Shown piece after piece: positions 17,741-18,435 of a stretch of DNA of 21,839 nt. The stretch is taken from the IMG/VR virus record IMGVR_UViG_2690316311_000003. One strand, given 5' to 3'. Every line of letters begins with the position of its first letter. Positions within the stretch are counted from its first letter, which is position 1. The DNA is from a virus. Taxonomy: Duplodnaviria > Heunggongvirae > Uroviricota > Caudoviricetes. Made by a program: the position numbers and the translations under genes. The notes beneath the pieces were generated by a model. That model had not been told where the DNA came from, ran no database searches, and was given only the letters and a program-made list of their open reading frames with translations.

Positions 17741-17817
17741 GTGGCATTAGCTCAGTTGGACAGAGCAACCGCCTTCTAAGCGGTTGGTCGCAGGTTCGAA
17801 TCCTGCATGCCACGCCA
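17741..17817 (+). tRNA. tRNA-Arg (anticodon UCU, reads AGA), argU-like, phage-encoded
   Basis: Full cloverleaf by hand: acceptor GTGGCAT/ATGCCAC, D-stem GCTC/GAGC, anticodon stem ACCGC/GCGGT with loop CTTCTAA, T-stem GCAGG/CCTGC with loop TTCGAAT, discriminator G and CCA. Confidence 0.93.
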
Positions 17818-17860
17818 GAATCACGCCTAAGGACCGTGATGCCAGAAGTTCCAGGTGCTT

Positions 17861-17902
17861 GGCGGTGATAGTTTCCCTTGAAGGACTATCACCGCCCTTT
17901 TT
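17861..17902 (+). terminator. Strong rho-independent terminator downstream of the tRNA
   Basis: 12-bp stem GGCGGTGATAGT / ACTATCACCGCC around a structured loop, followed by CTTTTT. Confidence 0.8.
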
Positions 17903-17980
17903 ACAGCAGGACGCCATTGCGATGACTTCATGCTGTAAACCCGTACAGCCACGGAAGGCATAACTCATTGCTTCCAGTTC

Positions 17981-18004
17981 GCCCGGTTCGCCGGGCATTT
18001 TTTT
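17981..18004 (+). terminator. Second terminator- or attenuator-like hairpin directly upstream of the gp49-like gene
   Basis: GCCCGG-TTCG-CCGGGC followed by A + TTTTTTT, ending 1 nt before the SD AAGGTG of the gene at 18016. Confidence 0.6.
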
Positions 18005-18015
18005 AAGGTGAGATT

Positions 18016-18387
18016 ATGAACGACCAGCAAATCGAAAAAGAAATCGTTGAGAAAGGCAAAACGGCACCGCGCGTTACGCCAGACCATATCGAAGGCATTA
18101 TTGCTCAGGAGGCATATTTCACAGCAGAAGATGGTGCCTTTGGCAAAGCCATAAAAGCGAAACATACTGGCGGAGAGGTAAACTACCAGCCGCACGAATC
18201 ACTTTCTCTGCTGACGTTCTGCGTCCTGGTGCTGCGCAACGGCTTCACCGTCACCGGAGAGAGTTCCTGTGCAAGTCCGGAAAATTTTGATGCAGAAATT
18301 GGTCGGAAGATTGCCCGGCAGAATGCTGTAAACAAAATCTGGATGCTCGAAGGTTACTTGCTGAAGCAGAAGTTAAGCGAGCAATAA
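18016..18387 (+). CDS. Hypothetical protein (123 aa), resembles the N4 gp49 / Sf6 gp66 family
   Basis: ATG with SD AAGGTGAG; motif LTFCVLVLRNGFTVTGESSCASPENFDAEIGRKIARQNAVNKIW recalled as characteristic of this family; antisense to the structural operon. Confidence 0.75.
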   Translation: MNDQQIEKEIVEKGKTAPRVTPDHIEGIIAQEAYFTAEDGAFGKAIKAKHTGGEVNYQPHESLSLLTFCVLVLRNGFTVTGESSCASPENFDAEIGRKIARQNAVNKIWMLEGYLLKQKLSEQ

Positions 18388-18407
18388 CACCGTGGCATGT
18401 CACAAAC

Positions 18408-18435
18408 AGCCAGCCTATGAGCTGGCTTTGTTTTA
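18408..18435 (+). terminator. Rho-independent terminator shared by the convergent gp49-like and large terminase genes
   Basis: AGCCAGC-CTATGA-GCTGGCT followed by TTTGTTTTA. Confidence 0.75.

Follow-up and report, generated by a model that had tools for sequence, protein, structure and literature searches.

The window analysed here, 21,839 nucleotides (nt) of the IMG/VR virus record IMGVR_UViG_2690316311_000003, belongs to a prophage of the phiV10/epsilon15 type (Uetakevirus) whose structural genes lie on the − strand, among them those for the portal (15413-17092, PF12236), TerL (18478-19953) and TerS (19950-20624, PF03592). Between gp3 and TerL the window holds an island that is read from the + strand and comprises a control region, a structured leader RNA, a tRNA-Arg(UCU) gene, two terminators and a gene of the Acb4 family. 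The original prediction regarded this island as an insertion that splits a terminase-portal transcription unit. It is instead a fixed feature of the genus, since it occupies the same position in all seven Uetakeviruses compared; its carriers are phiV10, typing phage 9, epsilon15, SPN1S, PAT1 and relatives from Enterobacter and Klebsiella. An alignment of seven islands reveals a fixed frame in which control region, leader, a slot filled by tRNA-Arg or a non-tRNA sequence, terminator T1, a 40-nt block, terminator T2, the motif AAGGTGA and an ATG follow each other, while the sequence 3' of this ATG varies from phage to phage. The island is 100% identical to E. coli 2015C-4944, and a 1.1-kb island query matches, at least in part, about one in five complete E. 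coli genomes. In the hit list of a sequence search, 64 Synechococcus phage records match at 80-90% identity, presumably via the tRNA only. The annotated parts are ordinary, as the tRNA, a 'Gp49 family protein' and the terminators already appear in GenBank and RefSeq records. The features listed in the original prediction are already annotated or explained; what merits attention is the leader RNA upstream of them and the slot for anti-defence cargo.

The leader RNA represents a family of structured RNAs that has good support but no entry in Rfam. Its conserved core of about 175 nt (17497-17672, +) contains helix S1 (17501-17505/17517-17521), helix P2, which starts at 17526 and closes near 17585, helix P4 with a UUCACCA loop and a possible pseudoknot to GGUG, and helix P5 (17652-17656/17664-17668) with a GAAGAGA loop. 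A BLAST search with 17334-17740 showed that 17500-17740 is ~82% identical in the unrelated phages cdtI, mEp460, Stx2c, Stx2a and P7, and a pattern scan of IMG/VR for the core returned at least 120 loci, corresponding to at least 133 instances and at least 102 unique cores. For covariation, 36 representatives with less than 93% identity were taken from the IMG/VR matches listed, and a structure drawn up by hand, with S1, P2, P4 and P5 as well as two possible pseudoknots, was tested on them. In this structure 97.0% of the cells pair compared to 88.8% in shuffles, changes on both sides occur in 12 pairs (86 cells), and the observed values were not attained in any of 500 shuffles. In slid controls the paired fraction is 26-44%, and RNAalifold independently recovered P2, P4 and P5. 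These data leave little doubt that the structured leader RNA is real. Since many of its G-U pairs make sense on one strand only, the RNA is encoded on the + strand. It is also non-coding, because indel lengths spread evenly over all three residues modulo 3 and no reading frame across the core is open in more than 11 of the 36 sequences. The unpaired stretches UAUGGCACAUG and GGUAGCCGGAAUGUGCAAG are extremely conserved.

A covariance model built for the leader RNA scores 143.5 bits at the core of the window. It detects a single copy in each of the window, phiV10 and P7, and the copy that it detects in epsilon15 is truncated. Among bacterial genome contigs that matched a degenerate pattern, 100 of 120 loci were searched with the model and 10 were genuine, all from Enterobacterales. 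Scans against Rfam 15 (the whole window at gathering thresholds, 17000-18800 at E ≤ 1) returned nothing beyond the tRNA itself and a chance match to its antisense strand, and none of the signature sequences of the leader RNA was printed in the full-text literature searched. One of the pseudoknots, PK1 (GCACAU/AUGUGC), is not claimed, since its 3' arm was fixed by the search pattern and two genome copies retrieved with a different pattern carry uncompensated changes. Protein coding of 17334-17740 was likewise rejected: an open reading frame (ORF) on the − strand (17440-17703), which overlaps the leader RNA, matches nothing in Pfam and PHROG only marginally, and no frame is conserved. Another − strand ORF (17747-17998) overlaps the tRNA and terminators, and the proteins annotated over equivalents of these two ORFs (phiV10p04, mEp460 gp37 and a BUCT554 protein) look spurious.

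The core is flanked by less uniform sequences. The 5' part of the leader (17420-17496, +) is variable in the alignment of the seven islands: most relatives have a long hairpin there, an insertion enlarges it by 130 nt in epsilon15 and PAT1, and SPN1S lacks it through a deletion. The epsilon15 record annotates an RNase III site in this region. On the other side a 3' domain (17673-17740, +) has a closing stem (GAGAGCA 17679-17685/TGCTCTC 17728-17734) around a variable insert and ends in CAGCGTT directly before the tRNA. According to the alignments this domain is common to mEp460, cdtI and Stx2c phages and absent in P7. In an IMG/VR subgroup (L021, L022, L055, L126, L129) the GAAGAGA hairpin of P5 is replaced by another hairpin, CCCAGACGATATCTGAG. 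The 3'-domain inserts of L013, L008/L009 and L016 contain T-loop-like motifs (GGGTTCGAATCCC, CTGGTTCAATTCCAG) that fit GGTTCRAWTCC, and a stem, GTTGTGGT...ACCACAAC, brackets the non-tRNA filler; their sequences suggest that both are decayed or mimicked tRNA elements.

Upstream of the leader, a divergent control region (17334-17420) separates gp3 from the island. It contains a perfect operator palindrome ATTACCTTTCAGGTAAT (17403-17419), a second operator AATTATTACC (17337-17346) and the motif AACCACATATG (17352-17362). The perfect palindrome overlaps the −10 element and the start site of a putative island promoter (17382-17410, +), which was read from the sequence as TTGACA (−35, 17382-17387), a 17-nt spacer and TACCTT (−10, 17405-17410). 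The arrangement TTGACA-17-TACCYT is invariant in geometry in 7/7 Uetakeviruses, with regard to TTGACA and the TAnnnT spacing; the promoter scored below the threshold of the sigma-70 scanner, with 3/6 consensus positions in the −10 hexamer. The operator pattern matches five times in the window (0.6 expected) and 15 times in phiV10 (1.26 expected), where some matches flank the gene of the helix-turn-helix repressor p40, and the authors of the epsilon15 record annotated the equivalent site as a repressor/IHF site. The operator is thus probably a site of the phage repressor, and the putative promoter would be under its control. On the opposite strand the palindrome is followed after ~30-40 nt by CATATGTGGTT, and this combination stands ahead of five phiV10 operons, each time after a terminator (L017 3251, 20876, 24691, 33111, 35069/35131; in the window 17352-17362 and 17403-17419). 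Because it recurs on the other strand before phiV10 operons, we regard the region as divergent and the head genes as having control elements of their own. Further operator-like palindromes occur at 175-191, near the left end of the window, and as an adjacent pair inside the 5' end of the TerS gene (20545-20579).

The RNA slot of the window is filled by the tRNA-Arg(UCU) gene (17741-17817, +). The original call of this tRNA is borne out by ARAGORN (anticodon tct) and Rfam (RF00005, 73.3 bits with a gathering threshold of 29), and the tRNA is already annotated in typing phages 9 and 10, in SPN9TCW and in RefSeq E. coli genomes. AGA and AGG occur at 5.6 and 2.5 per 1000 codons in the genes of the window, mainly in tail and injection genes, against averages of about 2 and 1 per 1000 in E. 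coli, so that the reading of the tRNA as a codon supply holds. In relatives the slot contains tRNA-Arg or non-tRNA filler, and in lambdoid relatives it contains the small RNA (sRNA) sRNA-17. This RNA of 193 nt was identified in E. coli K1 RS218 by Northern blot and rapid amplification of cDNA ends (RACE) and is encoded by an mEp460-like prophage (PMC7719688). It extends from GTTGTGGTGAATG... to ...GGTACCGCTCTTTT and in lambdoid relatives covers exactly the stretch from the end of the leader 3' domain to the U-tract of the T1 homologue (L009 ~2295-2487). These ends are in vivo evidence, from a homologous module, for transcription of the + strand, for a 5' end at the junction equivalent to the tRNA and for T1 serving as a 3' end. 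Song et al. (2020) treated the DNA upstream of sRNA-17 as an ArcA-bound promoter (PMC7719688). Inside the lambdoid leader RNA core we find GTTA-N13-GTTA, which fits the ArcA-site rule of that paper and has its repeats 17 bp apart. Just before its terminator sRNA-17 (L009 2295-2487; L006 ~2236-2412) contains CACAACA, the target consensus of GcvB R1; the anti-sRNAs AgvB/AsxR were considered and map to a different prophage site.

Three hairpins with U-runs belong to the cassette, and the three + strand terminators first proposed are recovered, as predictions, from a G+C-rich hairpin with a U-run at each site. T1 (17861-17903, hairpin 17861-17896, +) has a 14-bp stem and the tail CTTTTTAC / CUUUUUAC (−23.1 kcal/mol, z −6.1). 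The base of its stem and its tail are conserved in Uetakeviruses and lambdoid relatives, and its homologue is the mapped 3' end of sRNA-17. T2 (17981-18004, hairpin 17981-17996, +) is GCCCGG-UUCG-CCGGGC with six G-C pairs, followed by an A and seven U in the tail ATTTTTTT (−12.7 kcal/mol, z −3.5); together with the Shine-Dalgarno sequence and the ATG it is conserved ahead of different cargo genes. T3 (18408-18427) is a hairpin with U-rich flanks on both strands (−13.5 kcal/mol, z −3.5 on the + strand; −15.1 kcal/mol on the − strand). It probably ends both the island and the convergent TerS-TerL unit, as judged from the sequence, and its equivalent in phiV10 is annotated as a − strand terminator.

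The Shine-Dalgarno sequence AAGGTGAG (18005-18012, +) precedes the cargo gene of the window (18016-18387, +), which encodes a protein of 123 amino acids. Its assignment as an N4 gp49-like gene agrees with a match to PF13876 (Phage_gp49_66; E 4.6e-34, 117.2 bits with a cut-off of 27). PF13876, formerly the 'N4 gp49 / Sf6 gp66' family, has been equated with Acb4; Acb4 of phage SPO1 forms a tetrameric sponge for the cyclic dinucleotides of the cyclic oligonucleotide-based antiphage signaling system (CBASS), and 8/8 tested homologues bound 3'3'-cGAMP (PMC11722364). A phmmer comparison with the SPO1 Acb4 structure 9e4w (E 0.0023) aligned the window protein over the ligand-binding beta3-alpha4 region, including an ENFxxEIGR motif. 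In this ungapped alignment the pocket residues F48, F62 and I66 are kept as F77, F91 and I95, while E49, Y57 and T70 are altered to T78, A86 and I99, and N63, which makes a backbone contact, is changed to D92. The cargo is thus probably an Acb4-family sponge for cyclic dinucleotides directed against CBASS. At the same junction L012 and the IMG/VR group of L113 encode Tad2-like PF11195 proteins, the island of Enterobacter phage Tyrion has DUF551 as second gene downstream, and other relatives carry four families without Pfam match. Since such different genes share one junction, the slot is a swappable anti-defence position. A DUF551 protein is also encoded in the window itself, upstream of TerS (21270-21794, −). 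For the architecture of the cassette together with the assignment of its cargo we have good confidence.

The leader RNA occurs in three genomic contexts. Of the viral instances listed, at least 133, a cI-like repressor gene precedes the RNA on its own strand in 65, the Uetakevirus island accounts for 44, and in 12 the RNA stands ahead of ban in P7-like phages. The lambdoid phages cdtI and WGPS2 have operators and a PL-type promoter after the cI terminator, with the core starting ~40 nt past this promoter. These two phages show no N-like ORF behind the leader core, and a T1 homologue and a further hairpin stand ahead of the first early-left gene. In P7 the core lies 18 nt after a tRNA, and P7-like copies have no small RNA downstream. 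The annotated tRNA-Ile of P7 was read with the anticodon cat, and ARAGORN predicts in addition a tRNA-Ser(tga) (L005 1353-1439) that is not annotated in the P7 record.

According to the original prediction the gp49-like gene has no obvious promoter. This is correct for the DNA after the first hairpin, as a scan and reading by eye revealed no consensus sigma-70 promoter between the control region and the start codon of the cargo gene, including the stretch from T1 to the ATG. A promoter with a structured leader ~600 nt upstream is nevertheless the better explanation. The further assumption that the island is expressed independently of late transcription has gained support: an invariant promoter sequence with an operator lies upstream of the island, the third hairpin is terminator-like on the − strand as well and annotated accordingly in phiV10, the gp3/portal side has its own control motifs that are common to four other phiV10 operons, and an equivalent + strand RNA was seen by Northern blot and RACE in a lambdoid relative (PMC7719688).

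We propose that the island is an autonomous + strand cassette of the Uetakevirus genome plan with a put-like antiterminating leader, and assign a probability of roughly 45% to this statement as a whole. Transcription would start at the sigma-70-type promoter (17382-17410), under a probable phage-repressor operator, and run away from the head genes. The first ~325 nt of the transcript would form the non-coding leader, of which the 175-nt core (17497-17672) would fold into the conserved multi-helix structure. RNA cargo would follow, tRNA-Arg(UCU) here and sRNA-17 in lambdoids, and then the strong terminator T1; the 5' end of the tRNA would be cut by RNase P, as for any bacterial tRNA. Polymerases passing T1 and T2 would reach the conserved ribosome-binding site and ATG and then the phage-specific anti-defence gene. 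The leader RNA may act in cis on the transcribing polymerase, as does the put RNA of HK022, and the modified polymerase would resist Rho on the long untranslated stretch as well as T1 and T2, so that only transcripts from this promoter would express the cargo. Three observations favour an antiterminating leader: a long untranslated RNA and two terminators separate the sole plausible promoter from the cargo gene, whole lambdoid early operons lie behind the T1 homologue, and the invariant unpaired segments suggest a conserved host partner. Taken by itself, the antiterminating role of the leader RNA is a tentative assignment, drawn by analogy.

Several observations weigh against this proposal. 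In epsilon15 and VB_ST_E15 a deletion extends from mid-core to the second half of T1 (L003 2792-2869), by which the tRNA is lost while T2 and the Acb4-like gene are kept. Only a third of the core and half of T1 are left in epsilon15, so the core is not indispensable for keeping the cargo; this natural deletion mutant lends itself to comparison with SPN1S or PAT1. In P7-like phages the stretch from the leader RNA to ban yielded no terminator, and in a descriptive count terminators in lambdoid loci are no more frequent on the sense strand than on the antisense strand. The −10 hexamer of the island promoter is weak, and sRNA-17 is visible in the uninduced lysogen (PMC7719688), which fits poorly with strict repressor control. 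With regard to put, the essential G35 after put stem I is U, A or C in the leader RNA, and the covariance model with filters off gave no match to HK022 putL or to the HK639 putL-like RNA and only −0.7 bits (E 6.5) for putR.

The main rival, which we consider unlikely, is that the leader RNA serves as a processing or stability scaffold, presents tRNA-Arg or sRNA-17 for precise 5' cleavage and protects the precursor, while the cargo is expressed from leakage through T1 and T2. In its favour, the core adjoins a tRNA in two of its three contexts, preceding tRNA-Arg in the window and following a tRNA at a distance of 18 nt in P7, and the 5' end of sRNA-17 lies exactly at the junction that corresponds to the tRNA 5' end in the window. 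The T-loop-like GGTTCRAWTCC in the variable 3'-domain inserts and the retention of the cargo gene without the core in epsilon15 would also be in agreement with a scaffold. However, the lambdoid early-left operon lies wholly behind the T1 homologue, which calls for substantial read-through. Behind the P7-like copies there is no small RNA that could be processed, and the extreme conservation of the unpaired UAUGGCACAUG and GGUAGCCGGAAUGUGCAAG suggests a conserved macromolecular partner.

A role of the leader RNA as a riboswitch for a ligand, as a decoy or as an RNA that acts in trans is improbable; it might in this case, for example, sense or sequester a host factor or an immune signal and thereby adjust the expression of early or anti-defence genes. 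Its size, its pseudoknot-like contacts and its invariant unpaired nucleotides are typical of aptamers and ribozymes, and its position upstream of nucleotide-sponge genes would suit such a function, but the fold is separated from the first terminator by 260-300 nt and an entire tRNA or sRNA, and there is no overlapping expression platform. Moreover, the same RNA precedes unrelated genes (ban, early-left operons), and no candidate ligand emerged.

The original prediction likened the layout between the two terminators, as a speculation, to a leader-peptide attenuator; ribosomes on a mini-ORF between T1 and T2 would then decide on the formation of T2. The 13-codon mini-ORF (17922-17963, MTSCCKPVQPRKA) is indeed present in the inter-terminator block (17897-17980, +), which also contains a GGAAGGCA..TGCTTCC hairpin. 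Its ATG and six codons are conserved in 36/36 relatives (MT[S/L][C/R/F]CKP), all found with a motif that requires the ATG; the ORF runs into or through T2 in most of them and is in frame with the cargo gene in four (L012, L014, L015, L016), and AGGA stands 10 nt upstream in the E. coli lineage. However, only nucleotides are conserved, and they form a 40-nt block that reaches beyond the ATG on its upstream side. One lineage has the tandem Cys codons TGC TGT, where others have CGC TGT or TTC TGT, the peptide varies from 13 to more than 34 amino acids, and the frame through T2 varies as well. AGGA is the only Shine-Dalgarno-like sequence and is replaced by AGAA or AGAG in the Salmonella and Enterobacter lineages. 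In the window the mini-ORF stops 18 nt before T2, the computed fold of 17897-17980 consists of separate hairpins without T2, and the downstream gene encodes an anti-defence sponge rather than a biosynthetic enzyme and has no link to Cys supply. Attenuation by a leader peptide is therefore very improbable, and we would give a purely steric, translation-coupled effect of the mini-ORF just as little credit. The 40-nt block ACAGCAGGACGCCATTGCGATGACTTCATGCTGTAAACCC (17897-17940) is identical in E. coli and Klebsiella phages and ~85% conserved in Salmonella phages, and it contains no convincing covariation, promoter or coding signal.

Finally, the idea that the conserved leader block acts as DNA, either as a promoter or regulator site such as the ArcA-bound 'promoter of sRNA-17' treated by Song et al. 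or as a recombination site, can draw on the two GTTA repeats 17 bp apart in lambdoid cores, but is the least probable of all, given 12 compensatory pairs, G-U pairs that are sensible on one strand only, the lack of a consensus promoter inside the block and the need of the tRNA for a transcribed 5' leader.

If the antiterminating leader holds true, lambdoids without N at PL, P7-like phages and Uetakeviruses would push transcription through RNA cargo and terminators into early or anti-defence genes by means of the same RNA. The leader might then define a new class of antiterminator RNA that modifies the polymerase without the help of a protein, has no or only a very remote relationship to put and serves three unrelated groups of enterobacterial temperate phages; this broader claim is more tentative still. 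Seen with the leader RNA, sRNA-17 would be a 3' portion processed from a longer structured precursor, and the DNA presumed to be its promoter may be transcribed leader RNA. The slot behind T2 with two families of immune-signal sponges (Acb4, Tad2) and further families without Pfam match offers a small and well-delimited place to seek anti-defence genes.

The tRNA resembles other phage-borne tRNA-Arg(UCU) genes in its standard cloverleaf, its encoded CCA end and its presence in a phage that uses AGA/AGG, and differs from them by its place in a cassette of leader RNA and terminators and by its replacement through a non-tRNA RNA in relatives. The sRNA-17 locus combines leader core, 3' domain, RNA slot and T1 in a homologous module, and the mapped ends of sRNA-17 correspond to the slot boundaries; the window has a tRNA in this slot instead, and the published description is confined to the 193-nt sRNA and does not include a structured leader (PMC7719688). 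Compared to SPO1 Acb4 the window protein has ~30 extra N-terminal residues.

The closest known parallel to the leader RNA is found in putL and putR of HK022 and the putL-like RNA of HK639. All of these are cis-encoded structured RNAs just after an early repressor-controlled promoter, in phages without an N gene at this site and with terminators before the genes. The leader core in cdtI and WGPS2 occupies the position of putL in HK022 and HK639, and the core of the window likewise lies in the leader of a putative early promoter and upstream of terminators. By eye, ACGGCG..CAUGCGUCG of the leader core corresponds to the lower helix of put stem I (6-nt + 9-nt), and this helix covaries from G-C to A-U in 17/36 leader sequences. 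The two RNAs differ in size, as the leader RNA has 175 nt and at least four helices whereas put has ~70 nt and two stems in a V-shape, and the leader RNA extends beyond lambdoids to Uetakevirus and P7-like phages, unlike the put RNAs. In view of these differences, of the altered junction residue and of the negative result with the covariance model, we do not place the leader RNA in the put family and propose a functional analogy only. For such N-less phages 'a put RNA-mediated' mechanism was no more than a guess in a recent survey, and a leader RNA directly after PL in N-less lambdoids bears on this question.

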